Origin: an uncultured Jatrophihabitans sp.
GTDB lineage: Bacteria; Actinomycetota; Actinomycetes; Mycobacteriales; Jatrophihabitantaceae
Reading direction: 5' to 3'
Length of the DNA: 64,000 nucleotides
Assembly (NCBI GenBank): GCA_964244175.1
Contig: CAXTHY010000009.1
Span: forward strand, 29 to 64,028
The number at the start of each line of letters is the position of its first letter. Position 1 is the first letter of the stretch. The notes under the pieces were generated by a model, which was not told the DNA's origin, searched no databases, and worked only from the letters and a program-made list of their open reading frames with translations. A program made the position numbers and the translations under genes. Below, piece by piece: positions 21,529-50,736 of this stretch.

Positions 21529-22386
21529 TCAGGCGTCGACCGACGCGCCGAGTCGGTGCAGCAGGCCGCGGCGCCACTGCTCGGTCTCGGCCACCTGATT
21601 GAACGTGAACACGTGCAGGCCCTCGACCCGCGCGTCCGGGGCGGCCAGCGCCGGGGCCAGCTTCTCGAGGAAGCGCTCGCCGGTGAATCCGCCGGGCGCG
21701 GCCAGCCGGGTGAGCGTGCGCCGGTGCTTGGCCAGGAACTTCGTCGACTCGCCCACACCGATCTTCGTCGCCATCAGCACCAGCTTCGTGCGATCCACCG
21801 GCCCCGGCACACCGACCAGCAGCGGGATGGTGATCCCGCGCCCACGCATCCGGCGCAACCACGTCTGCACCAGGGCCGGGTCGAAGGTCAGGTTGCTGAC
21901 CACCTGGGTGGCGTGCCGGCGCTTGTCCCACATGGCCTGCACGGTCAGGTCGTCGTGGATCGACGGGTGCGACTCGGGATAACCGGTGACGCCGACGTTC
22001 GGGAACGGCCGGCCGAGGGCCTCGAGATCCTCGAGCAGGTCGAGGGCGGCGTGGTAGTCACCGGCTGGCGGATCGGCGTCGCCGGCCGGCACGAAGATCG
22101 TCCGCACGCCGGCGGCCCCGAGCCGGTCGCTGATCTCGGCCAACTCGCTTCGCCCGGACACCATCCGGGCGGCCAGGTGGGGCACGACCTGGTACCCGTG
22201 GCCGGCGAGCCGCTCGGCCAGGTCGAGCGTGGCCGCGATTCCCTTCGACGGCGAGGCCGTGATCGTGACGGTGAATCCGGCCGGCAGGTGCTCCAGCACC
22301 GCCGCCTCGGCCGCAGCAGTGGGCAGCACCTCGTAGCGGACGTGGGTCAGCAGCCGGCGCAGCGTCTCAGTAGTCTTGTTGCGCAT
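21529..22386 (-). CDS. metF: Methylenetetrahydrofolate reductase
   Basis: 285 aa from ATG 22386. MetF-like TIM-barrel sequence (SPSKGIAATLDLAERL..., GVTGYPESHP, LTFDPALVQTWLRRMRGRGITIPLLVGVPGP). Confidence 0.8.
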   Translation of the reverse strand: MRNKTTETLRRLLTHVRYEVLPTAAAEAAVLEHLPAGFTVTITASPSKGIAATLDLAERLAGHGYQVVPHLAARMVSGRSELAEISDRLGAAGVRTIFVPAGDADPPAGDYHAALDLLEDLEALGRPFPNVGVTGYPESHPSIHDDLTVQAMWDKRRHATQVVSNLTFDPALVQTWLRRMRGRGITIPLLVGVPGPVDRTKLVLMATKIGVGESTKFLAKHRRTLTRLAAPGGFTGERFLEKLAPALAAPDARVEGLHVFTFNQVAETEQWRRGLLHRLGASVDA

Positions 22387-22433
22387 AATGCAACTCAATT
22401 CAAATGATGCTACTAATCTTGGCCAGCATACCG

Positions 22434-37330: not shown

Positions 37331-38341
37331 ATGGGAGGGCTCTTTACGGACCCGGTGTCCGGCGCGTTGCCGCCGTGTTTCCGCGATACTGGCCGGGTGC
37401 CTGACGACGACACCCCCCTCGGCCCGGTCGACGCGGCGCTCGTCCCCCGCTACGCCGGGCTGACGACCTTCGCCCGCCTGCCCCGCCGCGAGGACGTCGC
37501 CCGCATGGACGTCGCCGTGGTCGGCGTGCCGTTCGACTCCGGCGTCAGCTACCGCCCGGGCGCGCGGTTCGGCCCGTCGCACATCCGGCAGAGCTCGCGG
37601 CTGCTGCGCCCGTACAACCCGGCGCAGGATCACGCCCCGTTCGCGACCCAGCAGGTCGTCGATGCCGGCGACATCGCGGTCAACCCCTTCGACATCCAGC
37701 AGGCCATCGCCGAGATCGAGGCGGCCGCGCGCGAACTCAGCGCCGGGGCCAAGCTGCTCACGCTCGGCGGCGACCACACGATCGTGCTGCCGTTGCTGCG
37801 GGCGATGCACGCGCGGCACGGCCCGATCGCGGTGCTGCACTTCGACGCCCACCTCGACACCTGGGACACCTACTTCGGCGAGCCCTACACGCACGGCACC
37901 CCGTTCCGCCGCGCGTCCGAAGAGGGCCTGCTCGACCGTGAGCACTGCATGCACGTGGGCATCCGCGGGCCGCTGTACTCCGAGCGCGACCTGCCCGAGT
38001 CGGCCGACCTCGGCTTCGCCGTCGTGCACAGCACCGAGCTGGACGAGCTGGGCGTCCCCGCCGTCGTCGAGCGTGTCCGGGCCCGACTGGGTGATCGGCC
38101 CGTGTACGTCTCGGTCGACATCGACGTGCTTGACCCGGCGCACGCACCCGGCACCGGCACACCCGAGGCCGGCGGCCTCACCTCGCGCGAGCTGCTGGCC
38201 ATCGTGCGCGGGCTGGCCGGGCTCGACGTGGTGTCGGCCGACGTTGTCGAGGTGGCGCCGGCCTACGACCACGCCGAGATCACCGGCATCGCCGCCGCCC
38301 ACGTCGCTTACGAATTGTTGTCGCTGTTCGCTGCGAAGTGA
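37331..38341 (+). CDS. Ureohydrolase (agmatinase / guanidino-acid hydrolase family)
   Basis: Mn-binding motifs: [35 protein letters not shown]. Start uncertain (ATG 37331 or a downstream GTG). Confidence 0.85.
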
Positions 38342-38368
38342 CACTATCCCGCGGGTAGGACAGGACGC

Positions 38369-39856
38369 ATGGCGACGCCCACGCAGGACAAGTCCGCGCC
38401 GGAGAAGAAGATCAGCGGCCTGGAGACGCGCTCGATCGACTACGTCCCCCTGGACGAGCGGCACGGCAAGCTCTGGCACCTGGGCCCGCTGTGGTTCATG
38501 TCCAACGCGCAGATCGCGACGCTGGCTGTCGGGCTGATCAGCATCACCGAGGGCGGCACACTGCTGTGGTCGATCATCGCGATCGTGGCGGGCATTCTGC
38601 TCGGCACGCTGTTCATGGCCTTCCACTCGGCGCAGGGGCCGCAGCTCGGGCTGCCGCAGATGATCCAGTCGCGGCCGCAGTTCGGCTACCTCGGCGCGCT
38701 GCTGGTCTGGCTCTTCGCCTACATCCAGTACGCCGGCTTCAACGTGTTCAACAGCGTGCTCGGCGCCGAGGCCATGCACACGACCGCGCACGGCAGCACC
38801 AAGCTCTGGATCGTCGTCGTCACCGTCGTCGCGTTCGTCATCGCGATGGTCGGCTACGACATCATCCACAAGGCCGAGCAGGCGCTGACCTACCTCATGC
38901 TCGGCATCTTCGGTCTGTTCACCGTCGCCCTGTTCTTCCTGCACTACCCGGCCGGCACGTTCGAGCTCGGCACCTTCAAGACCACGCCGTTCCTGGCCCA
39001 GTTCGGCGTCGTGGCCGGCTACCAGATCAGCTGGGCCATCTACGTTTCGGACTACTCGCGCTACCTGCCGCCGGGCGTCACCGTGCGCAAGACCTTCTAC
39101 TGGACGTACTGGGGTTCGGCCCTGGGCGGCGCCTGGCTGATGATCGTCGGGTCCGTCCTGGTCGCGTGGGTCGGGCTGAACAAGTTCGACGGCTCGGGCA
39201 TCGCCGAGATCAACGCCGCCGGCGACCATGTGTTCAACGGCTTCGGGGCGATCGTGCTCATCCTGTCGGCGCTCGGGCTCGTATCGGTGATGGCCCTCAA
39301 CATGTACGGCGGCTCGCTCACCCTGATCAGCGCGATCGACTCGTTCAAGCGGGTCCGCCCGACGGTCGGCGTACGCATCTTCACCGTCGGCCTCACCGCG
39401 GTGCTGTCGCTCGTCGGCGCGCTCGCGGCCAGCGCGAACTTCCTCTCGAACTTCAACAACTTCTTGCTGATGGTGCTCTACCTGTTCATTCCGTGGACGG
39501 CGGTGAACCTGGTCGACTACTACGTCGTGCGCCGCGGTCATTACGCCATCGCCGAGATCTTCAACCCCAACGGCATGTACGGGCGGTGGGGGTGGCGCGG
39601 AATCATCTCCTACCTCGTCGGCTTCGCGGCCATGATCCCGTTCTTCTCGGTCGGCGCCCCGCCCAACGACCTGTTCATCGGCCCGGTGGCGAACGCCCTC
39701 GACGGTGCCGACATCTCGCTGTTCATCGGCCTGCCGGTGGCCGGGATCCTGTACTGGTTGCTGTGCCGCAGCATCGACGTTGCGGCCGAGACCAAGGTGG
39801 CCGAGGCCGAGGCGAAGGAACTGGAGAAAGCCGCGCACGAGCACCAGCAGCCGTGA
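38369..39856 (+). CDS. NCS1 (purine-cytosine/hydantoin-type permease) family transporter
   Basis: 495 aa. YVPLDERHGKLWHLGPLWFMSNAQI plus a 12-TM pattern. GTGA overlap with the amidase gene. Confidence 0.85.
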   Translation: MATPTQDKSAPEKKISGLETRSIDYVPLDERHGKLWHLGPLWFMSNAQIATLAVGLISITEGGTLLWSIIAIVAGILLGTLFMAFHSAQGPQLGLPQMIQSRPQFGYLGALLVWLFAYIQYAGFNVFNSVLGAEAMHTTAHGSTKLWIVVVTVVAFVIAMVGYDIIHKAEQALTYLMLGIFGLFTVALFFLHYPAGTFELGTFKTTPFLAQFGVVAGYQISWAIYVSDYSRYLPPGVTVRKTFYWTYWGSALGGAWLMIVGSVLVAWVGLNKFDGSGIAEINAAGDHVFNGFGAIVLILSALGLVSVMALNMYGGSLTLISAIDSFKRVRPTVGVRIFTVGLTAVLSLVGALAASANFLSNFNNFLLMVLYLFIPWTAVNLVDYYVVRRGHYAIAEIFNPNGMYGRWGWRGIISYLVGFAAMIPFFSVGAPPNDLFIGPVANALDGADISLFIGLPVAGILYWLLCRSIDVAAETKVAEAEAKELEKAAHEHQQP

Positions 39857-41244
39857 CCGACGCCTGGGCCGCGGCCGCGGCGATCCGTTCGGGTTCGGCC
39901 TCGGCTCTCGACGGCGTCGAGGCGGCGCTGGCGCGTATCGCGGCCGTCGATGGTGAACTCAACGCGTTCACCGTGGTCACGGGCGCGGCCGCGCGGGCGC
40001 GGGCCGCGGCCGTCGACGCGGGCTCAGTGCACGGGCCGCTGGCCGGCGTCCCGATCGCGATCAAGGACCATGTCTGGCTGGCCGGTGTGCCCGCCACCAA
40101 CGGCTCCCGCGCGCTGCGTGACTACGTGCCCGATCGCAGCTGCGCCTGCGTTTCGCGGCTCGTCGAGGCGGGCGCGATCGTCGTCGGCAAGACCAACAAT
40201 CCGGAGTTCTGCTACCGCGGCGTCACCGACAACGAGCTGTTCGGGCCGACCCGCAACCCGCGTGACCGCACCCGCACGACCGGCGGCTCGAGCGGCGGAT
40301 CAGCGGCTGCGGTCGCCGCCGGGCTGGTGCCCCTGGCGGTCGGCACCGACGGTGGCGGCTCGATCCGCATCCCGTCGGCGTTCTGCGGCACATACGGGCT
40401 GAAGCCGACCTTCGGGCTCGTCCCCAAGCTGCCGGGCTTCCGCGGCTGGCCGACGCTGTCGGTGACTGGCCCGATCGCCGGGTCGGTGCGCGATCTCGCG
40501 CTGGCGTTGTCGGTGATGGCGGGTCCGTCCGCAGACGACCAGCTCTCGTGGGTCGGCGCGCCCGGTGACTACCTGGCGGCGGTGACCGCGCCGTCGTGGG
40601 CCGGAGTGCGGGTGATGGTCTCGGCCGACCTCGGTTTCGCCGAGCTCGACCCGGACGTGCGGTCGTCGTTCGCAGCGGCCGTCCAACTCGTGACGGCGGC
40701 CGGTGCACAGATCGTCGAGATTGCGCCGCCCACGGAAGACCCGACGCAGTTGTGGGACGCGATCGCGCTGCCGGAGGGCTACGCATCGGACGGTCCACTG
40801 GTCGAGGCGCAGCCCGAGCTCGTTGGTGCGGACGCGGCCGCGATCGCCCTGGCCGGGCGTGACGTCTCGGCGCGGGCCTACCTCGACGCGCAGGAGGCCC
40901 GGTACGCGTACGCCGCCGGGTGGGACGCGTTCTTCACCCAGGCCGATGTCGTGCTGACGCCGACGATGCCGGTGACCGCGTTCGATGTCGGCCGCCTGGC
41001 CCCGGCCACGATCGACGGCCGGGCCGTGCCCGAGTCGTTCGATGCGTGGTGCGCGCTCGCGTTGCCGGCGAACCTGGCCGGGCTGCCCGCGGCCAGCGTG
41101 CCGATCGGCGCGGGCCGCGACGGGCTGCCGGTGGGGCTGCAGGTGCTGGGCCGCCGCGGTGACGACACTGCGGTGCTGCAGGTCGCGGCCCTGGTCGATG
41201 CCGCCGTCCGCGCTGCCGTCCGCGCCCCGTCTCCTTCGCGATGA
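39853..41244 (+). CDS. Amidase-signature family amidase
   Basis: 463 aa from GTG 39853. Motifs: GVPIAIKD, GKTNNPEF, GGSSGGSAAAVAAG, GTDGGGSIRIPSAFCG. Confidence 0.85.
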   Translation: MTDAWAAAAAIRSGSASALDGVEAALARIAAVDGELNAFTVVTGAAARARAAAVDAGSVHGPLAGVPIAIKDHVWLAGVPATNGSRALRDYVPDRSCACVSRLVEAGAIVVGKTNNPEFCYRGVTDNELFGPTRNPRDRTRTTGGSSGGSAAAVAAGLVPLAVGTDGGGSIRIPSAFCGTYGLKPTFGLVPKLPGFRGWPTLSVTGPIAGSVRDLALALSVMAGPSADDQLSWVGAPGDYLAAVTAPSWAGVRVMVSADLGFAELDPDVRSSFAAAVQLVTAAGAQIVEIAPPTEDPTQLWDAIALPEGYASDGPLVEAQPELVGADAAAIALAGRDVSARAYLDAQEARYAYAAGWDAFFTQADVVLTPTMPVTAFDVGRLAPATIDGRAVPESFDAWCALALPANLAGLPAASVPIGAGRDGLPVGLQVLGRRGDDTAVLQVAALVDAAVRAAVRAPSPSR

Positions 41245-41322: not shown

Positions 41323-42099
41323 TCAGCTGGGCAGGAAGGTCGCGATCTCGTGCAGCGCGTCGACGCAGCCGGCGACGCCCGCCTCGAAATGCGCCTTGCC
41401 CGCCTCGGCGCTCGCCCCGGTCGGGTCGCCGATGGTGCCGTCGGTGCCGAAGTCGTCGGACAGCCAGCCGAAGCTGACGGGCTTGCCGAAGCCGACCTTC
41501 GCGTAGCGCGCAACGTTCTCCGGAACCGAACGCACCGCGCTTTCCATGTGCACGAGGTCCGGACGCAGGTGCAACATCACCGACGTCTCGGTGTGCCCGC
41601 CGTGGATGCCGAGCCCGAGCTCGTCAGGAACGTTGCCGCGATCGGGGCCGCCCTGGTCGATGGGCACGCTGGGGTGCATCAGGAATGTCCGCAGCCCGAA
41701 TTCGCGGCGCAGCTCGCGGCAGGCCACCTGCAGCAGCGCGCTGTTGCCGCCGTGCCCGTTGAGGAACACCAGCCGTCGGGCGGGTGACGCGGCCACCGAG
41801 CGGCCGATGTCGACGAGCACCCGCATCAGCGTGTCCCACGACAGCCAGATCGTGCCCGAACTCCAGGAGTGCTCGTCGGACTTGGTGAAGGCGAGTGTGG
41901 GCAGCCGCCAGATGTCGAGGCCGGCGCCGGCGGCCTCGGCGGTGACGGCTGCGCTCGTCGCGTCGGCCACCGTGTAGTCGGTCGAGACGGGCAGGTGCGC
42001 GCCGTGCTGCTCGACCGCGCCGAGGCCGAGCAGCACGATCGAGTCGGGGCCGAGCGTGGCCACCGAGCCGGGGCCGGTGAGATCGACGAACTCGGGCAT
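41323..42099 (-). CDS. Creatininase-family amidohydrolase
   Basis: 258 aa. LGLGAVEQHGAHLPVSTD and NGHGGN motifs. GAGGAG RBS, and 15 nt after the upstream stop. Confidence 0.85.
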   Translation of the reverse strand: MPEFVDLTGPGSVATLGPDSIVLLGLGAVEQHGAHLPVSTDYTVADATSAAVTAEAAGAGLDIWRLPTLAFTKSDEHSWSSGTIWLSWDTLMRVLVDIGRSVAASPARRLVFLNGHGGNSALLQVACRELRREFGLRTFLMHPSVPIDQGGPDRGNVPDELGLGIHGGHTETSVMLHLRPDLVHMESAVRSVPENVARYAKVGFGKPVSFGWLSDDFGTDGTIGDPTGASAEAGKAHFEAGVAGCVDALHEIATFLPS

Positions 42100-42114
42100 G
42101 ACGCTCCTCGGGTC

Positions 42115-43437
42115 TCAGGCGGCGGCGAGCTTGCCCGGGTTGAGCAGGCCCTTCGGGTCGTAGCGGTCGAGCACGGCGCGGATGCCGTCGATGCGCCGAT
42201 CGAGAATCCACGTGTGCGGGCTGTGGATGCCGACGCCGAGCTCGCCCAGCTCGCGCATCCCGCGGTAGACGTCGTCCTCGCTGACGTAGGGCGCCATCAG
42301 CATGCCGACGAGCGCGTCGCGCATCTTCTCGAGGTGGATGACGCTGCCGGCATAGACCGCGCGCACGTCGTCCGGACGGTCGCCGAGCACGTCGCCGCCG
42401 ACCTCGAGGTGGAACCAGTGGTCGGGCGTGCGCTTCTGCATGTGGAACGTCGTGTGGTTGAACGACAGGGACGTCACGCGATCGGAGCCCTTGCCGCCGG
42501 GGCGCACGTCGAGCACCTCACCACCGTGCTCGACCAACAGCGCGCGGGCCGCGTCGACCGTCCCGATCTCGACGATGGCCCGCAGAGACAGGCGCTGCGG
42601 GTCGAGGGCGCGCCGATCGCTGGGCAGGTCGGCCACGATGCTGGCCTCGTCGCCGGAGATCAGCCGCGGCGCCTCGGCCAGGCCGACGGCGAGCGCCCGC
42701 ATGGCCGCCACCAGCGCGGCGTAGTCGGTGAAGGCGGCGAACAGGCCGGCCCACTCATGGATCGGCTCCGTCATCACCGTGGCGCGCGAGATGATCCCGG
42801 TGGTGCCGTAGGCGTGCACGAACGGCAGCGTCTCGGCGCCCTCGATGTGGCGCAGGCCGGGTTCGCCGTCGCACGCGGCGACGTCCAGGGCGCGCACGAA
42901 CCCGTCGGCGTTGGTGCCGTGCCGCAGCGAGCCGGTGCCGCCGCTGCCGCCGGCGAGGAAGCCACCGAGCGTCGAACCCTTGGTCGACGGGAACATCCAC
43001 AGCTCGCGGCCGTGCTCGGCCAGCACGTCCTCGAGATCACGCATGCGCACGCCCGCCTCAGCGGTCACTGTCTCGTCGTCGACGGACAAGATGCGGCGGC
43101 AATCGCTCACGTCGATGACCACGCCGCCGTGCAGCGGGATGGCCTGGCCGTAGTTGCCCAGGCCGGTGCCGCGGGCGGTCACCGGCACGTCCAACTCGTA
43201 GGCGTGCGAGACGACGACGGCGATCTCGTCGGCATTGCGCGGCGTCACGACGACATCGGCCAGCCCGGCCGGCAGCTTGGCGGTGAGGATCGGCGACATG
43301 TGGGCCCAGTCGACCGACAGCCGCTCGCGGCGCTGCTCGTCGAGCGTCACCGACTCCTTCCCGAGCTCCGAGCGCACCCGCGCCACGAACTCGGCGATCC
43401 GCAACTCGCGTTCGGTGCTGGTGTCGGCCGCCGTCAC
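42115..43437 (-). CDS. FAD-binding (FAD_binding_4 / GlcD-like) oxidoreductase
   Basis: PRNADEIAVVVSHAYELDVPVTARGTGLGNYGQAIP. Start uncertain: GTG 43437 is preferred because it leaves 77 nt to the divergent gene. The ORF is open to ATG 43512. Confidence 0.75.
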   Translation of the reverse strand: MTAADTSTERELRIAEFVARVRSELGKESVTLDEQRRERLSVDWAHMSPILTAKLPAGLADVVVTPRNADEIAVVVSHAYELDVPVTARGTGLGNYGQAIPLHGGVVIDVSDCRRILSVDDETVTAEAGVRMRDLEDVLAEHGRELWMFPSTKGSTLGGFLAGGSGGTGSLRHGTNADGFVRALDVAACDGEPGLRHIEGAETLPFVHAYGTTGIISRATVMTEPIHEWAGLFAAFTDYAALVAAMRALAVGLAEAPRLISGDEASIVADLPSDRRALDPQRLSLRAIVEIGTVDAARALLVEHGGEVLDVRPGGKGSDRVTSLSFNHTTFHMQKRTPDHWFHLEVGGDVLGDRPDDVRAVYAGSVIHLEKMRDALVGMLMAPYVSEDDVYRGMRELGELGVGIHSPHTWILDRRIDGIRAVLDRYDPKGLLNPGKLAAA

Positions 43438-43514
43438 CCGAGCGAACCTAATCGGGCCATGTTTCGCGCCGGTGACGAGACGTGCCGGAAACACCCGGGT
43501 GCTGTGCTGCACTG

Positions 43515-45074
43515 GTGAACGACCTGCCGGCCACCGCGGACGTGGTCGTGGTCGGTGGCGGGCACAACGGGTTGGCCTGCGCCGCCTACCTGGCCCGGGC
43601 CGGCCGCCTGGTGGTGCTGCTCGAAGCGCGCGCGTCGCTCGGTGGCTGCGCCTCGACCGTCGACGCCATCGGGGCGCGGGTCAACATCTGCAACTGCGAC
43701 CACACGATGGTGCTGGCCAGCGGCATCGTCGACGACCTCGACCTGGCTGCCCACGGGCTGCGCTACCTCGACGTCGATCCGGTGTCGGTCGCTGTCGGGT
43801 GGGACGAAGCGACGCCGCCGTTCGTGCAATGGCGCAGCATCGAGCGCACGATCGACGGGCTGCGCCGCACCGACCCGACCGCCGCAGACGCGTACCGGCG
43901 TTACCTGGCCGCGGCGTTGCCCGTCGCCCGGCTGATGCTGGAGGTGCAGCGCGGCCGGCCGACCATGACGGCGATCGCCGCCGCGGCCGGTCGACGCAGG
44001 CTGCGCGGCAGCACCACCTTGCTGCGCTGGGCCCGCTCGACCGTGCTCGACGTGATGAGCGGCTTCGGCCTGCCGTCGTGGCTGATCGCCGCCGTCGCGA
44101 CCAGCGGGCCGGCCGTGTGGGGACTGCCACCCGACGCCGCCGGCACCGGTCTGGCCGCGCTGGGACCGGCGGTGCGGCATCTGGTCGGGGTGGGTCGCCC
44201 GGTGGGCGGTAGCGGTTCGTTGCCGGCGGCGCTCGCGGCCTGCGCCATTGCGCACGGCGCCCGACTGGTCACCGGCGTGCCGGTCGACGGCCTGCTCGTC
44301 GAGCACGGGGCCGTGCGCGGAGTGCGTACGAGAGCCGGCGAGGTCCGCGCGCGTTCTGTCGTCGCGGCGATCGACCCGAATGTCGTGGTGCGTGACTGGC
44401 TCGGCGCGGTCGAGGCCGGTACGGCCCTGCGCGCCGCCTATGCCCGTGCCGAACCCGGTGACGGGTACGAGTCGAAGCTCGACGCCGTGGTGGGTGCGGT
44501 GCCGGTGCCGCAGGCGCTGCTCGCCCTGCCCGAGGACGTCCTGCCCGCCGCCTCGCGCGGCGTCGCCACGACGCTGTTCTGCCCGACGCCGGCGCAGCAG
44601 ATCGCCGCGGTGGCCGCGCGGCGGGCAGGGCGGGTGTCGGATCCGCCGATGTTCCTGGTCAACGTCGCGTCGGTGCTCGACGAGACGATGCGGCCCGCCC
44701 CCGACGCGCACCTGCTCAGCCTCGAGGTGCTGTGGACGCCGTACGCCCTGGCCGGGGGCTGGGCCGGGTCGAGCGAACCGTACGGCTGGCTCGAGCGGCT
44801 GGCCACGCAGTGCGCGCCCGGCCTGCTGGACTCGGTGCGCGAGTGGCGGGTGGTCACCCCGGTTGACTACGAGCGCGACTTCGGGTTGGCCCGCGGGTAC
44901 GCGCCGTCGTACCCGGGCAGCGTGCTGGCCACCCTGCTCGGCCGCCGCCGTGAGCTGTCGCGCTACCGCACGCCGGTCGACGGGCTTTACCTCACCGGGG
45001 CCGGCACGTTCCCGGGCGCCGGCGTGTGGGGAGCGAGCGGACGCAATGCCGCGGCCACCGTCCTGGCCGCGTGA
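43515..45074 (+). CDS. NAD(P)/FAD-dependent oxidoreductase of the phytoene-desaturase (CrtI-like) family
   Basis: GTG 43515. DVVVVGGGHNGLACAAYLARAG dinucleotide-binding motif. C-terminal LYLTGAGTFPGAGVWGASG. Confidence 0.8.
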   Translation: MNDLPATADVVVVGGGHNGLACAAYLARAGRLVVLLEARASLGGCASTVDAIGARVNICNCDHTMVLASGIVDDLDLAAHGLRYLDVDPVSVAVGWDEATPPFVQWRSIERTIDGLRRTDPTAADAYRRYLAAALPVARLMLEVQRGRPTMTAIAAAAGRRRLRGSTTLLRWARSTVLDVMSGFGLPSWLIAAVATSGPAVWGLPPDAAGTGLAALGPAVRHLVGVGRPVGGSGSLPAALAACAIAHGARLVTGVPVDGLLVEHGAVRGVRTRAGEVRARSVVAAIDPNVVVRDWLGAVEAGTALRAAYARAEPGDGYESKLDAVVGAVPVPQALLALPEDVLPAASRGVATTLFCPTPAQQIAAVAARRAGRVSDPPMFLVNVASVLDETMRPAPDAHLLSLEVLWTPYALAGGWAGSSEPYGWLERLATQCAPGLLDSVREWRVVTPVDYERDFGLARGYAPSYPGSVLATLLGRRRELSRYRTPVDGLYLTGAGTFPGAGVWGASGRNAAATVLAA

Positions 45075-45134: not shown

Positions 45135-46313
45135 TCAGCCCGGCAACTTGATCGCCTTGTCGAGGAACTGGTTGTCGACCAGGTCGGACGGCTTGAGCCC
45201 GGCCTTGAGCTTCTTGCCCGACTTCGAGTAGATCGGGGTCAGGATGTCGATCAGGTGTTGCACCCGGGCGGTGTCGAAGTCGCCGAGTGTGCCGCTCTTC
45301 GGGTCGTTGCCGAGGATGCCGAGCTTGGTCATCGTCGACACCGCGTAGCTCGCCACCCCGGGTGTGTAGACCCAGCCGTTGTTGTACGCCTTCACCAGCT
45401 GGAGGATCAGCTTGTTCGTCGCCGTCGGGTCCTTGGCGAAGTCGACGATCGCCTGTTGCATGATCGGCACCAGCTTCGTCAGGCACTTCTTCAAGCCGGG
45501 CAGCGCCGCGGCCCGCACCCCGATCTGCTGCTGGTAGAAGTCGAAGCCGGCATCGGCGATGAGCTGGTACTTCATCGGCTTCATCCAGGCCTTGACCTCG
45601 TGCTGGTAGGTGTAGGGCTCGGACGTGGCGAAGCCCTGCACCGCGAACTGGCCGCGCGAGCCGACGAACTCCGTCGGCGTGCCGTCATACCCACCGTCGA
45701 TCTGGCTCTTCTTCAGGATCCCCTTGCCCACCAGGTAATCCATGTACGCGGCGCCCTGGAAGTACAGCACCTTCGTATTGGTCTTGCCGATGTCGGCGAT
45801 CGTCTTCCAGGTCGGGTGAACCTGTGGCGACCACTGGATGATCTGCGGGCTCTTCTGCAGCCCGGCCAGCACCGCGACCGTTGGCAGCGTGGCCGACAGC
45901 GACACCTGCTCGTCGGTACCGAGGTAGCCGAGCGTGATCGACTTGTCCTTGTACAGCTGCGAGGTGACGGTCTGGAACCCGACCGCCGGACCGCCGGAAC
46001 GGATCTGTACCTTCACCCCGGTCGCGTGCCCGGACGCGTACAGATCACCGGTCACCGATTTCTGCGCGGCGTTGATCGTCGGGTTGGGCCCGACCAGCTG
46101 GTACTGCCCACCGTGTTCGCTCTCGGGGTTCCAGTCGGTCTGGATGCTCACCGTCGCCGGGCAACCGGCCGCCTTGAGGTCGTACTTGGAGGCCGCGGCG
46201 CTCTTCGCCGGTCCAGCGGACTTGGCGGCACTGTTGCACGAGGCCAACAGAACGGCCACGCCGATACACGCCATGGCGCGCGACGCATGTCGCACGGCTC
46301 GGGTTCGGGTCAC
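45135..46313 (-). CDS. ABC transporter substrate-binding lipoprotein (NitT/TauT - NMT1/ThiY-like family)
   Basis: 392 aa from GTG 46313, with GAGGAG upstream. Signal peptide with lipobox LLASC. NMT1-like body. Confidence 0.8.
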   Translation of the reverse strand: MTRTRAVRHASRAMACIGVAVLLASCNSAAKSAGPAKSAAASKYDLKAAGCPATVSIQTDWNPESEHGGQYQLVGPNPTINAAQKSVTGDLYASGHATGVKVQIRSGGPAVGFQTVTSQLYKDKSITLGYLGTDEQVSLSATLPTVAVLAGLQKSPQIIQWSPQVHPTWKTIADIGKTNTKVLYFQGAAYMDYLVGKGILKKSQIDGGYDGTPTEFVGSRGQFAVQGFATSEPYTYQHEVKAWMKPMKYQLIADAGFDFYQQQIGVRAAALPGLKKCLTKLVPIMQQAIVDFAKDPTATNKLILQLVKAYNNGWVYTPGVASYAVSTMTKLGILGNDPKSGTLGDFDTARVQHLIDILTPIYSKSGKKLKAGLKPSDLVDNQFLDKAIKLPG

Positions 46314-46363
46314 ATGTGCTCCTCTGGAAGGTGGCCGGGACGGCCGTGATGGGTGTGCAGTGA

Positions 46364-47242
46364 TCAGCCGCGGTTGGCGTTGTACCAACGGCCGACGACG
46401 CGGTTGTTGAGCCAGCCGAAGATGACGAAGACGGCGACCCCGAGCAGGCTCGAGAGCAGCACCGCGGCGAACAGCGGTGGGAAGTCGACGCGCGAGGTGT
46501 AGACCGAGAGCAGCGTTCCGAGACCGGCCACGCCCTGCTTGAAGTACAGCTCGCCGACGATCGCGCCGATCACTGAAAGCCCTGCGGCCACGCGGAATCC
46601 GGCGAACATCGCCGGCAGCGCGGCCGGCAGCTGCAGCTTGAGCAGTCGGGTCAACCGCCCGGCCTTGTGCAGCGTGAACAACTCGTGCGACCCGCGGTCG
46701 GCCGACTTCAACCCGAACACCGTGTTGGAGACGATCGGGAAGAACGAGATCAGCACGCAGACGACGATGCGGCTCGACAGTCCGTAGCCGAACCAGAAGC
46801 TGATCAGCGGGATGAGGGCCAGCACCGGCACCGTCTGCAGGATGATCGCCCAGGGGAACAGCGACGCCTCGAGCCACTTCGTCTGCGTCATGATCATCGC
46901 CGAGAGCACGCCCAGCACCATCGAGATGCCCAGCCCGATGAAGGTCACCTCGGCCGTGTTGCCCAGCCCGCTGAGCAGTTCGCTGCGGGTGGCCGAGTCG
47001 ACGAAGCCGCGGTCGATCACCTCGTGCGGGGCCGGGAGCTCGAAGCGCAGGTCGGGCTCGAGCACGACGTAGGTGACGAAGTACCAGGCCCCGATGATGA
47101 TCGCGAACACGATCGTCGGGCCGATCATCGATTTGAGCACGGCCCTGACGCTGCGCCTTTTCGCCCGCGGCTGCCGGGTGAGCAGGGCGGTATCTGCCGG
47201 TCCGGGCACGACCGGAGCGTCCTTCTTGACGACGGTGGTCAC
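46364..47242 (-). CDS. ABC transporter permease (NitT/TauT-type)
   Basis: 292 aa from GTG 47242. Six hydrophobic segments. GTGA overlap with the ATPase gene. Confidence 0.85.
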   Translation of the reverse strand: MTTVVKKDAPVVPGPADTALLTRQPRAKRRSVRAVLKSMIGPTIVFAIIIGAWYFVTYVVLEPDLRFELPAPHEVIDRGFVDSATRSELLSGLGNTAEVTFIGLGISMVLGVLSAMIMTQTKWLEASLFPWAIILQTVPVLALIPLISFWFGYGLSSRIVVCVLISFFPIVSNTVFGLKSADRGSHELFTLHKAGRLTRLLKLQLPAALPAMFAGFRVAAGLSVIGAIVGELYFKQGVAGLGTLLSVYTSRVDFPPLFAAVLLSSLLGVAVFVIFGWLNNRVVGRWYNANRG

Positions 47243-47985
47243 GACACGCTCCGTAGGTGGTGGCTGACCTCGCCGGAGAGTTCGGCGAACTCGGCGGTGT
47301 AGCGCAGGTCGGGTTCGCGTGGGTAGGCGAATGGCACGTCGACCTCGGCGACGATGCGACCCGGCCGTCCCGACATCACAACGACCCGGGTCGACAGGAA
47401 CACCGCCTCGGCGACCGAGTGCGTGATGAACAGGCCGGCGAAGCTGCGGGCCGTGAACAGCTTGAGCAACTCGTCGTTCAGGCGTTCGCGGGTGATCTCG
47501 TCGAGTGCGCCGAACGGTTCGTCGAAGAGGAAGATGTCGGGTTCGAGGGTGAGCGAGCGGGCCAGCGAGGTCCGCATCTTCATGCCGCCGGACAGTTCGT
47601 GCGGGAGGTGCTCCTCGAAGCCGGTCAACCCGACGAGCTCGATCGCCTCGTTGGCCCGCTTGCGCCGCTCGGCCTTCGGCACGTCCTCGAGCTCGCAGAA
47701 CAGCTCGATGTTGGCCCGCACCGTCCGCCACGGCAGCAGCGTCGCGTCCTGGAAGACGTAGCCGACGTTACGACCGTTGATCTGCACCTCGCCGCCGGTC
47801 GCCTTGTCGAGACCGCTGGCGATACGCAGCAACGTGCTCTTGCCGCAGCCGGACGGGCCGACGACCGACACGAATTCGCCCGGCCGCACCAGCAGGTCGG
47901 CGTCGGTGAGCGCCACCGTGCCGTCGCGGAACCGCTTGCTGACTCCGGTGAAGCTCATCGCCGGTTCGGCGAGCGCTGTACTCAT
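47239..47985 (-). CDS. ABC transporter ATP-binding protein
   Basis: Walker A GPSGCGKST, signature LSGGMKMR, Walker B IFLFDEPFGALD. ATG 47985 with a GGAGG RBS. ATGA overlap with the amidohydrolase gene. Confidence 0.9.
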   Translation of the reverse strand: MSTALAEPAMSFTGVSKRFRDGTVALTDADLLVRPGEFVSVVGPSGCGKSTLLRIASGLDKATGGEVQINGRNVGYVFQDATLLPWRTVRANIELFCELEDVPKAERRKRANEAIELVGLTGFEEHLPHELSGGMKMRTSLARSLTLEPDIFLFDEPFGALDEITRERLNDELLKLFTARSFAGLFITHSVAEAVFLSTRVVVMSGRPGRIVAEVDVPFAYPREPDLRYTAEFAELSGEVSHHLRSVS

Positions 47986-49202
47986 ACTGGTACCTCCACC
48001 TCGAGTGGGCTGGACAGCTGGGTCTCGACGCGGGTACGCGCGACCAGCCGGCCGGCGCGAAAGACCATCCGTTGCGGGCTGGCGGCGCCGAGCACCTCGT
48101 TGGCGTCCACGGCCTGCACGGCGACGAGGTCGGCCGGACTGCCGGCGGCGATGCCCACGGGGGGTCGTCGCAGCGCCGCCCGCCCGGCCGCGGTCACTGC
48201 ATGCAGCGCTTCGTCGACGAGCAGGTGGCCGTCGGTGACGAGTAGGGCGCCGACCTCGAGCGCGTCGCCCCGACCGACCGGGTGGAAGGCGTCGCGCAGG
48301 TTGTCGCCGCCGGCCGCGACGATCGCGCCGGCGTCGAGCAGCGCGCGCACGGCCGTCAGCCCCCGCGGGGTCGACTGCGGGTGCGCGCGGCCCTGCAGGT
48401 AGAGGTTCGTCTGGGGCAGGGCGACGATCGCGACGCCGGCGGCGGCGATCTTCTCGGCCACCCGGCGCTGGGTCGACATCGGCTGCACGCCGAGGCTCAC
48501 GCAGTGGCTGGCGGTGACCCCGGGCGCGAAGCCGGTGGCGGTGACGAGGTCGGCCAGCCGCTCGAGCGTCAGCATCTCGGGGTTGAGCGTCTCGTCGGTG
48601 TGCAGGTCGAGGGGCACACCGAGCTCGCCGGCGATGTCGAGGCAGGCTCCGACGCCAGCGATCGGATCGGGATCGAGGTGCGGGCAACCGCCCGCGACAT
48701 CGGCCCCCTCGGCCATGGCCCGGCGCAGGTCGAGGCCGGCCGCGCCGGTAAGCGGATGCCCGACGAGCGCGACCAGTTCGAGGTCGACGAGTGGACGCCA
48801 GCGTTCGCGCACCTCGACCAGGGCCTCCAGCGCCCGCAGCCCGAAGGCGTGGCCGATGTTGACGTGGCTGCGCACCGTCGTCGTGCCGAACGCCAGGTGC
48901 AGGCGCAACGCTGCCTCGGCCCGCGCGACGAAGTCGGCGTGCGTGAACGTCTCGGCGATCTCGCCCATCGCGATGATCGCGCCGAGCAGATCGCCGGTCG
49001 GATTCACCGAGCGCGACACCGTCAGCGCCTTGTCCAGGTGCGCGTGCGGCTCGACGAACGACGGCATCAGCACGTACCCGTCGAGGTCGATCACCTCGGT
49101 GCCGGCCGCGGCGGAACCGACCCCCGCGATCCGGCCGTCGGCCAGCGTCACGTCGGCGACCGTGCCGTCGAGCAGCCGCGCGTTGCGCAGCACCGTCGTC
49201 AT
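47982..49202 (-). CDS. Metal-dependent amidohydrolase, CodA (cytosine deaminase)-like
   Basis: 406 aa from ATG 49202. Motifs: FVEPHAHLDK (HxH), LHTDE, ASHCVSL, GGDNLRD. ATGA overlap with the upstream gene. Confidence 0.8.
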   Translation of the reverse strand: MTTVLRNARLLDGTVADVTLADGRIAGVGSAAAGTEVIDLDGYVLMPSFVEPHAHLDKALTVSRSVNPTGDLLGAIIAMGEIAETFTHADFVARAEAALRLHLAFGTTTVRSHVNIGHAFGLRALEALVEVRERWRPLVDLELVALVGHPLTGAAGLDLRRAMAEGADVAGGCPHLDPDPIAGVGACLDIAGELGVPLDLHTDETLNPEMLTLERLADLVTATGFAPGVTASHCVSLGVQPMSTQRRVAEKIAAAGVAIVALPQTNLYLQGRAHPQSTPRGLTAVRALLDAGAIVAAGGDNLRDAFHPVGRGDALEVGALLVTDGHLLVDEALHAVTAAGRAALRRPPVGIAAGSPADLVAVQAVDANEVLGAASPQRMVFRAGRLVARTRVETQLSSPLEVEVPV

Positions 49203-50233
49203 GTCAGCACCGGATGCGGTTGCTGTGCGCGGACCGCGACTGCGATCTCGGCCAGTGCGCCGGCCGTGGCCAGTTCGTCGCCGGGTTGGGTCCCACCGGA
49301 CAGGTTGACGCCGTCGACGCCCGGCATGGCCAGCATCTGCAGGCTGAGCTCCACGGCGGCCGCGACACCGGCCGCCCTTGGATCGGCGGCGGCGACGATG
49401 CCCTCGACGTAGCCGGTCGGCACCCGCCCGGCCGCGAACGACAGCAGGACCAACGCAGTGGCTTGGTTCAACACGAAGGGGACGCAGGCCAGCACGGTGC
49501 CGGCGAATCCGGCCGCACGCAGTTCGGCAGTCGCGTCCGCCACGTGCGTCGGGCCACCGCAGTGATCGACGAACACGGTGTCGGCGCCGGCGGCGATCTT
49601 GGCGAGCAACCGCGGCAGGCGGATGGCGGCCGGCGGCACGTCCGGCGCGTGAGCCACCGAGCATGGCCGTCCGCGATCGGCCGCGAACTCGATCAGCTCG
49701 ACCGAGTCCAGGTCGAAGACCGGCGCGGCGTCGGGTCGCAGGCCCAGCGCCGGGTGGTCACCGGTGACGCAGTGTAGGCCCGCGGCGCCGGCATCCAGGC
49801 ACGCCGCGATCTCGCCTTCGAGCGCGACGCGGTTGCGGTCGCGGCAGTTCAGCCCGACCCAGGCGGGCACTCCGGCGTCGGCGAGCAGGCGCGCACGGTA
49901 GGACGGCGGGAACTGCACCCGGGCGCCGCCGTGATCGCCGGTCAGGACCGCATCGACGGTGCCGGTGAGGACACCGGCCACCTCGCGCAGGGACGTCGAC
50001 GACAGCGGTGCGGCCGGGAGATCCACGACCACCAGCGGGCGGTTGGGCGGCGGGCGGCCGGTAACGGTCGTGGCGTCATACGGCCACAGGTCGGCCGGCA
50101 GCTCGATGAAGGTGCAGCGTCCGATACCCGGAACCTCGCAGTCGCCGGCCGGCGTCACGCCGGCGCAGGGGCCGTTGGCCATCGATTTCGGGCAGCGCGC
50201 GGCGGCGTCGACCCAGTCGTCCGCCCGCTGCAC
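49199..50233 (-). CDS. Fusion of a MetV-type Cys-rich motif (MTHFR C-terminal-domain family) with a methylenetetrahydrofolate-reductase-like barrel
   Basis: N-terminus CPKSMANGPCAG...GDCEV...GRCTF (four Cys in 27 residues, CPKxMxNGPC motif), followed by a MetF-like region (LTGDHGG, GLNCRDRN, HCVTGDHP). First gene of a 5-gene operon. Confidence 0.65.
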   Translation of the reverse strand: MQRADDWVDAAARCPKSMANGPCAGVTPAGDCEVPGIGRCTFIELPADLWPYDATTVTGRPPPNRPLVVVDLPAAPLSSTSLREVAGVLTGTVDAVLTGDHGGARVQFPPSYRARLLADAGVPAWVGLNCRDRNRVALEGEIAACLDAGAAGLHCVTGDHPALGLRPDAAPVFDLDSVELIEFAADRGRPCSVAHAPDVPPAAIRLPRLLAKIAAGADTVFVDHCGGPTHVADATAELRAAGFAGTVLACVPFVLNQATALVLLSFAAGRVPTGYVEGIVAAADPRAAGVAAAVELSLQMLAMPGVDGVNLSGGTQPGDELATAGALAEIAVAVRAQQPHPVLT

Positions 50234-50277: not shown

Positions 50278-50736
50278 ATGAACAGTGCGTTTCGCCCCCC
50301 GCGGCGGGCGGATATGGTCGCGGTCGTGGAGGACGTCGACCGCACGCAGCGACCGGTCATGCCGCCGACCATCGCGCCGCCGGCGGCGCGCTATGCGCAC
50401 GCCATCCTGGTCACCAACCCGACGCGCTGGCTGCACTCGTCCGGGGTGGTGCCGATTACGCCGGACGCGACGGTGCCGGCCGGGGTCGCGGCCCAGGCCG
50501 AGGTCGTCTGGACGAACATCGCCGCGATCCTCGACGACGCCGACATGGGACCGGCCGACATCGTCAGCGTCACGACCTACGTGGTGGCCGAGGCGATGGG
50601 CGACGGATTGGGTGAGGCGATGGCCGCGCGTGATCGTTTCCTCGGTGGCCGGCTGGTGGCCAGCACACTGGTGACCGTGCCGGCCCTGGCCCAGCCGGCC
50701 TGGCTGATCGAGATCGCCGTCGTCGCTGCGTCCTGA
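50278..50736 (+). CDS. RidA/YjgF-like family protein
   Basis: YAHAILVTNPTRWLHSSGVVP...EVVWTNIAAILDDADMGPADIVSVTTYV. Start uncertain, with several in-frame ATGs between 50278 and 50358. Confidence 0.7.
   Translation: MNSAFRPPRRADMVAVVEDVDRTQRPVMPPTIAPPAARYAHAILVTNPTRWLHSSGVVPITPDATVPAGVAAQAEVVWTNIAAILDDADMGPADIVSVTTYVVAEAMGDGLGEAMAARDRFLGGRLVASTLVTVPALAQPAWLIEIAVVAAS

Follow-up and report, generated by a model that had tools for sequence, protein, structure and literature searches.

The MetVF-type methylenetetrahydrofolate reductase (MTHFR) of acetogens (Clostridium ljungdahlii, C. formicoaceticum) is encoded by two separate genes, metV and metF, and functions in the Wood-Ljungdahl pathway (PMC8515935, PMC8760232). 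MetV, whose gene lies upstream of metF, is an Fe-S/Zn protein with the signature NGPCGG (PMC8515935) and contains ferredoxin-type [4Fe-4S] motifs. In a stretch of 64,000 nt of DNA from a Jatrophihabitans sp. (hereafter the window), an earlier note, made from the sequence alone, had described a five-gene operon on the minus strand (45135-50233), whose first gene (gene 1) joins a MetV motif to a MetF-like barrel. Gene 1 resembles the acetogen enzymes in having the NGPC[GA]G/PF12225 signature upstream of a MetF barrel, but it is one chain of 344 amino acids, has four cysteines, approximately 33 of the 95 MetV profile positions, and none of the ferredoxin-type motifs, and stands in a context of heterocycle catabolism, in a high-GC actinobacterium that also encodes a uricase. 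We conclude that it represents the MetVF type of MTHFR in a new variant, both fused and minimal, that has been recruited into an uncharacterised module for the uptake and degradation of a heterocycle. The earlier note knew of no characterised example of this operon, and we likewise found none in the literature on PF12225 and on this gene combination.

A fused MetV-core and MetF-like protein

Re-reading of the sequence confirmed all that had been read from it directly, that is, the coordinates, gene overlaps and motifs, the four cysteines in 27 residues and the 50-nt gap in front of the last of the five translationally coupled genes. Gene 1 (49199-50233, minus strand) begins with a GTG, the only start upstream of the cysteine motif. 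Its N-terminal Cys4 module (50114-50194, minus strand; C14, C23, C32, and C40, with the signature NGPCAG) was delimited by sequence, conservation, and alignment to a MetV-like protein. It corresponds to residues 14-40, CPKSMANGPCAGVTPAGDCEVPGIGRC, in which the four cysteines, spaced 8-8-7, surround CPKSMANGPCAG; ANGPCAG is present in the gene 1 sequence. PF12225 (MTHFR_C/MetV) matches residues 11-44 with 27 bits, against a Pfam cut-off of 23, over profile positions 39-71 of 95 (~33 residues, about a third). Among 45 gene-1 orthologues, C23, C32, and C40 never vary and conservation of C14 is 90% or more, and C32 and C40 are still invariant among 64 diverse homologues; the Pfam match and this conservation indicate that the motif is not due to chance. 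No ferredoxin-type [4Fe-4S] motif (CxxCxxCxxxC) was found in the N-terminal 60 residues, so that the term MetV-like, as used in the earlier note, holds for the Cys4 NGPC core and not for a complete, cluster-bearing MetV. Another actinobacterium (locus L019) encodes a MetV-like protein that is full-length and stands alone, and this protein aligns to the N-termini of gene-1 orthologues with 40-60% identity over 24-60 residues. Because the N-terminal module matches both the MetV signature and this stand-alone protein, gene 1 is best described as a fusion of a metV core to metF in the ancestral metV-then-metF order.

With the MTHFR profile PF02219, gene 1 reaches 17.2 bits, short of the cut-off of 24, and a sequence search of the Protein Data Bank (PDB) with gene 1 alone returned no match. 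Kinship with MetF therefore has to be established from a family profile or from the predicted fold. A profile of the gene-1 family matched the human, Thermus, Haemophilus, and Escherichia coli MTHFRs (E-values from 9e-17 to 4e-11). An AlphaFold2 model built on 64 homologues (predicted local distance difference test score, pLDDT, 94.7) retrieved with Foldseek only MTHFRs among its top 47 PDB matches, with target-normalised template modelling (TM) scores of 0.65-0.76 and 16-18% identity; in this model, the barrel is the (beta-alpha)8 (TIM barrel) fold of MTHFR. The presence of the motifs TCRDRNR and CVTGDH, together with NF006396 (YitJ-type MTHFR domain) as the best NCBIfam model, places the barrel nearer to the YitJ-type lineage than to E. 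coli MetF. Taken with the PF12225 match and the alignment to the MetV-like protein, these profile and fold comparisons bear out the proposed fusion and show gene 1 to be an MTHFR of the MetV-MetF type in one chain, with a divergent MetF barrel.

Mutagenesis of MetF has assigned Glu28 as the proton donor, Asp120 to the binding of the pterin N3 and 2-NH2, and Gln183 to that of N1/N8 (PMC11094777). We mapped the active site by hhalign against E. coli MetF and against the canonical MetF of the same genome (probability 96.7%). The equivalent of Glu28, reached through the canonical MetF of the genome, is Asp71, an acid at the end of strand 1 of the barrel; Asp120 corresponds to the invariant Asp159; and Gln183 corresponds to Asp223 in close orthologues and to Asn in most relatives. 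The replacements at the Glu28/Asp120/Gln183 positions are thus conservative rather than identical. Lys172 corresponds to K212, and the KxxAGA motif is kept. Gene 1 is like the E. coli and Thermus MetF in its (beta-alpha)8 fold, in the equivalents of Asp120 and Lys172, in KxxAGA and in the acid at the Glu28 position, and differs from them by its low identity, by Arg118 (Thr157), His88 (Gly), and Gln183 (Asp), and by the additional N-terminal Cys4 module. R118, H88, Y152, H156, D165, N168, and R171 are FAD (adenosine/pyrophosphate) contacts of E. coli MetF; they are replaced in gene 1 by T157, G127, A196, P200, R205, R208, and A211, respectively, and from the list of FAD contacts only G119, D120, A150, and K172 are kept. 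A comparison of the flavin-binding residues, suggested by the earlier note, thus has a mixed outcome, the pterin and catalytic positions being conservatively kept and the FAD contacts mostly replaced. Residues R131, R133, T157, G158, D159, R205, R208, and K212 are invariant across the subfamilies of the gene-1 family, and gene-1 orthologues have a conserved pocket that is strongly basic (R105, R131, R133, R135, R205, R208, K212).

Relatives of gene 1 and their folate context

The assembly (4.0 Mb, 91% complete) encodes four MTHFR-fold genes of three kinds. Besides gene 1, these are a canonical MetF on contig 8 (310 bits), a paralogue of gene 1 on contig 81 (L009:11164-12914), 38% identical and with the same Cys4/MetF-like fusion, and a 289-amino acid MTHFR-like protein encoded in the window (21529-22398, minus strand), which matches PDB entries 7xg9/7xlf with an E-value of 1e-31; 7xg9 is an MTHFR of 288 amino acids, which we take to be of the mycobacterial type. 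Gene 1 is accordingly additional to another MTHFR of the window, as had been noted, and to the MetF of contig 8. Given the canonical MetF, the contig 81 paralogue, and the MTHFR of mycobacterial type, gene 1 is not this genome's housekeeping MTHFR. That it might be an alternative housekeeping enzyme for methionine synthesis, whose position in the operon is meaningless, would fit a MetF homologue with conserved core residues, and the Agreia carrier genome (G402) has no PF02219 match besides gene 1; a canonical MetF was found in four of the five other carrier genomes examined. We nevertheless regard this explanation as very improbable, given the two other MTHFRs of the genome, the lack of met genes nearby, and the linkage of gene 1 to the same non-methionine genes across families and through several rearrangements (see below).

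More distant relatives of gene 1 are found in folate-related contexts. Fused MetV-core/MetF homologues, 30-37% identical to gene 1, directly follow a DmdA-like gene of the GcvT family in five independent loci, given as L013, L014, L015, P0173, and P0236 (a side list gives L013, L014, L015, L111, and L113). The best model for this upstream gene is the tetrahydrofolate (THF)-dependent dimethylsulfoniopropionate demethylase DmdA, with 285 bits, below its cut-off. Locus L019 has a split form of the same arrangement, in which a DmdA-like gene is followed by the MetV-like gene (136 amino acids; PF12225, 91 bits) and then by a MetF-like gene, for whose product the YitJ-type MTHFR model gives 202 bits. 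The order of these genes matches the one expected for the re-oxidation of 5-methyl-THF that a demethylase has produced, and pairs of a THF-dependent demethylase and MetF have a precedent in LigM/MetF of Sphingobium. From its sequence, the pair of DmdA-like and fused genes looks like an unreported demethylase/methyl-THF oxidoreductase pair of actinobacteria. The proposal of the earlier note that gene 1 possibly captures a C1 unit receives indirect support from this pairing of more distant fused homologues. The contig 81 paralogue is followed by an S-adenosylmethionine-type methyltransferase gene, the stop and start overlapping, and two genomes from the same taxonomic order (L011, L012) share this pair. 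At least three subfamilies can thus be defined by context, linked to a demethylase, to a methyltransferase, or to a purine module, the last of which includes gene 1. In a quick tree, the demethylase-linked sequences are basal and the purine-module sequences derived, with weak support (SH-aLRT values of 80-90). Because the active-site residues are common to all subfamilies, the simplest inference is that the whole family handles methyl- or methylene-THF.

The gene-1 subfamily differs from the demethylase/MetF pairs in its surroundings. The idea that the module of gene 1 includes a folate-dependent demethylase was rejected, since the 80 loci compared have none at a distance of up to 10 kb. In the window, a weak GcvT-family match with 24-25% identity to DmdA-like proteins was observed at 10994-11770 (minus strand), at a distance of 38 kb from the operon, and probably represents the ordinary GcvT or a YgfZ-type protein.

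The amidohydrolase, the importer, and the conserved module

Gene 2 (47982-49202, minus strand), which overlaps gene 1 by ATGA, encodes a metal amidohydrolase of 406 amino acids with the motifs PHAHLD, DLHTDE, and GGDNLRD and Pfam domains Amidohydro_3/Amidohydro_1. It aligns over its full length with E. coli CodA (1k6w; E-value 8e-42) and also matches the N-isopropylammelide isopropylaminohydrolase AtzC (E-values from 1e-22 to 1e-25), and it keeps the HxH motif and the equivalents of the CodA metal and catalytic residues His61, His63, His214, Glu217, His246, and Asp313. It differs from CodA at two residues of cytosine recognition, FPQE reading LVGH (with loss of Gln156) and DD reading DN (Asp314 to Asn); the resulting Asp-Asn pair, which follows the metal ligand, resembles that of AtzC. 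Its best NCBIfam equivalog, NF005759, gives 232 bits against a cut-off of 403, and models of the cytosine-deaminase type score far below their cut-offs. The description of gene 2 as CodA-like thus stands for its metal and catalytic residues and not for the two cytosine-specific ones. Given these changed residues and the scores below all equivalog cut-offs, its substrate is probably not cytosine and, to judge from the residues retained, probably an amino- or alkylamino-substituted oxo-heterocycle.

The three following genes encode an importer. Gene 3 (47239-47985, minus strand; ATGA overlap with gene 2) is an ABC ATPase of the nitrate/sulfonate/taurine type (ABC_tran; best NCBIfam models ntrCD, SaoA, and TauB-like, all under their cut-offs), and gene 4 (46364-47242, minus strand; GTGA overlap with gene 3) is an SsuC/TauC/SaoP-like ABC permease (BPD_transp_1; NCBIfam matches under cut-offs). 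Gene 5 (45135-46313, minus strand), 50 nt after gene 4, encodes a lipoprotein substrate-binding protein with the lipobox LLAS/C, for which no Pfam (NMT1 included), NCBIfam, or PDB match was obtained by sequence, even with a profile of 40 sequences. Its AlphaFold2 model, built on 40 orthologues (pLDDT 91), matched in Foldseek ThiY (3ix1; E-value 6e-14, target-normalised TM score 0.76) and the thiamin-binding protein 4nmy (TM score 0.75-0.76), followed by Thi5, TauA, and SsuA. The NMT1/ThiY-type assignment of the earlier note is thereby recovered in the predicted fold and finds no sequence-family match; gene 5 has a predicted ThiY/Thi5-like fold, a likeness at fold level only, with 15% identity to ThiY.

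The fold of gene 5 invites the question of whether the operon serves the salvage or degradation of thiamin pyrimidines (formylamino- or hydroxymethyl-pyrimidine). The two best folds are indeed those of ThiY, a formylaminopyrimidine binder, and of a thiamin-binding protein; the creatininase family, which has a member near the operon, includes the formamidopyrimidine deformylase ArfB; and a PdxH-like oxidase that accompanies many gene-1 loci could oxidise an aminomethyl- or hydroxymethyl-pyrimidine. However, beyond the low identity to ThiY and the missing NMT1 match, we found no TenA, ThiD, or YlmB genes and no thiamin pyrophosphate riboswitch, and the neighbours of gene 1 are purine-catabolic, which makes this explanation quite improbable. 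Xanthine/urate riboswitches control genes for NMT1/THI5-like and TauA-type binding proteins and transporters in Proteobacteria, where the thiamin annotation proved misleading (PMC7373994), and the module described here is similar to these systems in that an NMT1/ThiY-fold binding protein is tied to purine oxidation genes. No riboswitch was found here as a clue to the ligand: the window between 33 and 56 kb had no Rfam match at an E-value of 1 or below, and a search of seven related loci returned a tRNA only. A dip of GC content to 0.66 at 45-47.5 kb, over the transporter genes, raised the possibility of horizontal transfer, which was rejected because GC at third codon positions (GC3; 0.91-0.94) is like that of the neighbours and only first and second positions (GC1/GC2) deviate; the dip therefore reflects amino acid composition and not a foreign origin.

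The unit is larger than the five genes, which are themselves as first described, since two genes that belong to the conserved module lie just downstream of them, past a convergent gene. These are a FAD_binding_4 (GlcD/D-lactate-dehydrogenase-like) oxidoreductase (42115-43512, minus strand; PF01565), with 6v42/6v43 ("FAD/FMN-containing dehydrogenase") as best PDB match over the full length (E-value 6e-48), a match that might give a hint of the substrate, and a creatininase-family hydrolase (41323-42099, minus strand; PF02633, 209 bits). The convergent gene (43482-45074, plus strand) encodes a CrtI/amine-oxidase-like FAD oxidoreductase of the CrtO/CrtI family (Pfam NAD_binding_8, DAO, Amino_oxidase), so that the region added by these flavoenzymes and the hydrolase spans 41323-45074.

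By scanning one genome per species, we identified no fewer than 401 gene-1 relatives, of which those in metagenome-assembled genomes (MAGs) of Jatrophihabitantaceae are closest (64-67% identity). Among the other carriers are Frankia, Dactylosporangium, Nocardioides, Klenkia, Kineosporia, and Cellulomonas, as well as many Microbacteriaceae and a few Deinococcota; Klenkia brasiliensis (DSM 44526), Microbacterium testaceum, Agreia spp., Cellulomonas marina, and Dactylosporangium are carriers available in culture. None of 401 genomes sampled evenly across the phylum had a gene-1 orthologue, so the distribution of the family is patchy. Neighbourhoods were compared in the best 80 loci and the window (81 in all), with genes called by a GC3 suffix-score caller and then clustered; these loci are phylogenetically non-independent, many of them closely related, and the co-occurrence counts are therefore descriptive. 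Gene 1 occurs with the ABC ATPase in 57 loci, with the FAD_binding_4 oxidoreductase and a PdxH/PhzG-like PNPOx protein in 52 each, with the binding protein and the permease in 51 each, with the CodA-like enzyme in 44, with the creatininase-family hydrolase in 41, and with a short-chain dehydrogenase/reductase in 33. Genes of purine catabolism also recur: allantoinase AllB and uricase (30 loci each), allantoate amidohydrolase (26), hydroxyisourate (HIU) hydrolase (22), the decarboxylase of OHCU (2-oxo-4-hydroxy-4-carboxy-5-ureidoimidazoline; 17), and xanthine dehydrogenase (XDH) subunits (15). The survey that the earlier note had called for thus yields the co-conserved set and, in other genomes, a tie to urate and allantoin that had gone unnoticed.

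The arrangement of these genes varies between lineages. The five-gene order is kept in Dactylosporangium, Pseudofrankia, and a Jatrophihabitans MAG, and gene 1 is the first gene of the operon in the Frankia/Jatrophihabitans/Dactylosporangium type. In Microbacteriaceae, it is divergent from allantoinase-uricase genes and convergent with an operon running from the CodA-like to the PNPOx gene, and in several Microbacterium species it is paired only with a PNPOx-XDH operon. Our main argument for a functional link is that the linkage of gene 1 persists through these rearrangements. That it is co-conserved with both amidohydrolase and importer in many families of actinobacteria and in several gene orders, as the earlier note would have predicted, argues for the proposed dedicated transport-plus-hydrolysis role, catabolic or in salvage, and not for methionine synthesis. 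Besides gene 1, the conserved larger module consists of a NitT/TauT-type importer with its ThiY-fold binding protein, the CodA/AtzC-like aminohydrolase, the FAD_binding_4 oxidoreductase, the creatininase-family hydrolase, and a flavin oxidase that is PNPOx-like or, in this lineage, CrtI-like. Of the transporter-bearing loci, 36 have the PNPOx-like and 8 the CrtI-like gene, and none has both, which suggests that the CrtI-like enzyme is a non-orthologous replacement of the PNPOx-like one at a single oxidation step, or simply reflects lineage history; the only PNPOx-like homologue found in this genome, 34% identical and encoded elsewhere, is probably a housekeeping protein.

Several further genes were observed in or beside the module. 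Many loci (L034, L044, L049, L067, L079, and others) also carry a PuuR-like regulator of the HTH-cupin type, a second amidohydrolase similar to 8-oxoguanine deaminase, and an FNR-type reductase with a 2Fe-2S domain, the latter being a candidate electron partner. In the window, a RidA/YjgF (L-PSP) family gene (50278-50736, plus strand; PF01042, 52 bits) is divergent from gene 1, 44 bp from its start, an arrangement found among the loci only in the nearest relative (L023, a Jatrophihabitantaceae MAG), and this neighbour hints at a reactive imine or enamine intermediate. Genes for a ureohydrolase of the agmatinase family, an NCS1 permease, and an amidase of the amidase-signature type (37331-41244, plus strand) converge on the creatininase and FAD_binding_4 genes. 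An amidase of the same cluster is found with gene 1 in 23 loci, and this operon may belong to the same pathway as the module.

The co-occurrence of a CodA-type deaminase with a creatininase-family hydrolase could also be read as a route for the degradation of creatinine, N-methylhydantoin, or a guanidino cyclic amide, in which gene 2 would be a creatinine deaminase, the creatininase would open the ring, a flavoenzyme would oxidise sarcosine, and gene 1 would take up the methylene-THF. A sarcosine-type N-methyl group would account for a folate C1 enzyme, and the ureohydrolase, NCS1 permease, and amidase adjoin in the window. Yet the creatininase homologue of the window scores 86 bits on the creatininase equivalog, whose cut-off is 235, and higher on the MftE model, also below the MftE cut-off; the module has no sarcosine oxidase/SoxA or GcvT-type gene; and the recurrent neighbours are urate and allantoin genes, not creatine genes. 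Creatininase and creatinine deaminase, moreover, normally belong to alternative routes. We consider a creatinine-type pathway improbable, though somewhat less so than the thiamin-pyrimidine one.

A possible role in purine- or pterin-like heterocycle catabolism

The surroundings of gene 1 recall the puc and hpx purine clusters of Bacillus subtilis and Klebsiella, as in many loci the module is likewise found near the genes for uricase, HIU hydrolase, OHCU decarboxylase, allantoinase, allantoate amidohydrolase, and XDH. Genes of the MetF-like, creatininase-family, FAD_binding_4, and PNPOx-like kinds are, by contrast, absent from puc and hpx. Routes that feed heterocycles into the degradation of urate do exist, as in Cupriavidus sp. 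LA-1, whose pterin/lumazine cluster (PMC12391406) shares with the module a logic in which a pteridine is deaminated and oxidised, its ring is rearranged, and xanthine is passed to purine catabolism. Identity with that cluster was rejected, because its molybdenum lumazine dehydrogenase, Amidohydro_2 isomerase, and UbiD/UbiX decarboxylase are absent from the module.

We tentatively favour a scenario, to which we give somewhat less than an even chance, in which gene 1 is a folate C1 oxidoreductase serving an undescribed catabolic module for purine- or pterin-like heterocycles. The imported compound would be a purine- or pterin-like base, possibly N-methylated, from which gene 2 would remove the exocyclic amino group; flavoenzymes would oxidise the base, the creatininase-like enzyme would open a ring or an amide, and the product would enter the xanthine/urate/allantoin route. 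Gene 1, serving this catabolic module and not methionine synthesis, would dispose of or recover a C1 unit. It would act on a tetrahydropterin-bound C1 unit (5-methyl-THF to 5,10-methylene-THF or the reverse) and probably holds a flavin, which may be FMN as in the MetVF enzymes, and electrons would pass by way of the Cys4 metal site to some partner that is not NAD(P)H. The C1 unit could come from formaldehyde released when a flavoenzyme of the module carries out an oxidative N-demethylation, from glycine of the ureide pathway, or from an imported methylated pterin or folate.

Several points weigh against this scenario. In the 80 loci, the 10 kb around gene 1 contain neither a GcvT/DmdA-like gene nor any other that depends on folate, which leaves the folate-bound C1 unit without an evident source in the module, and an MTHFR would be an unusual means of handling formaldehyde. 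The DmdA-linked relatives, which supply the folate context, are only 30-37% identical to gene 1, and the split into subfamilies is the weakly supported one of the quick tree. Most of the E. coli-type FAD contacts are replaced, so that an E. coli-like FAD site is not present, and Glu28 to Asp and Gln183 to Asp are changes at catalytic positions. Finally, the window has no urate genes near the operon, uricase and allantoinase being encoded on other contigs of the assembly, and the purine link comes from other genomes, of which many are close relatives of one another.

Some of the same observations would fit an enzyme that has left folate altogether. By analogy with the imidazolidine/iminium chemistry of methylene-THF, gene 1 might reduce or oxidise a C=N/C-N bond within the imported heterocycle (for example, the purine imidazole C8=N7 or the pterin pyrazine), as the ring-redox step of a new urate/allantoin route. 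The tightest partners of gene 1 are the PNPOx-like oxidase and, in Microbacterium, an XDH-family enzyme, even where the importer is missing, in a module without any folate enzyme. Asp159 corresponds to the residue that reads the N3/2-amino edge of the 2-amino-4-oxopyrimidine ring, which is common to pterins and guanine, and the changed catalytic positions (Glu to Asp, Gln to Asp) and the strongly basic conserved pocket of the orthologues point in the same direction. On the other hand, the same conserved residues occur in the DmdA-linked and methyltransferase-linked subfamilies, which argues for a common substrate or cofactor, and there is no known precedent for a MetF-fold enzyme acting on substrates other than folate or methanopterin. 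Direct action on the heterocycle is thus rather unlikely, at about one chance in four. A similarly modest likelihood applies to the broader proposal that an undescribed route feeds a modified purine or pteridine/folate (N-methylated purines, formamidopyrimidines, 5-methyl-tetrahydropterins) into urate/allantoin degradation, with the fusion carrying out redox on the heterocycle or on its N-C1 unit. Were the fusion re-tooled for heterocycle redox, it would open up a substrate class new to the MTHFR fold, electrons entering through a minimal Cys4 metal site.

In the anaerobic acetogens from which they are known, MetV-MetF reductases take part in CO2 fixation, and the present data indicate that a minimal, fused form is widespread in actinobacteria, in at least 401 species genomes, many of them of cultured soil or plant-associated species. 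Its purine-linked module brings together six to eight enzymes and a dedicated importer. Identification of the substrate would add a missing branch to the turnover of N-heterocycles (purines, pterins, vitamins) in soil, and would give a function to a family that databases list only as "MTHFR C-terminal domain-containing protein".

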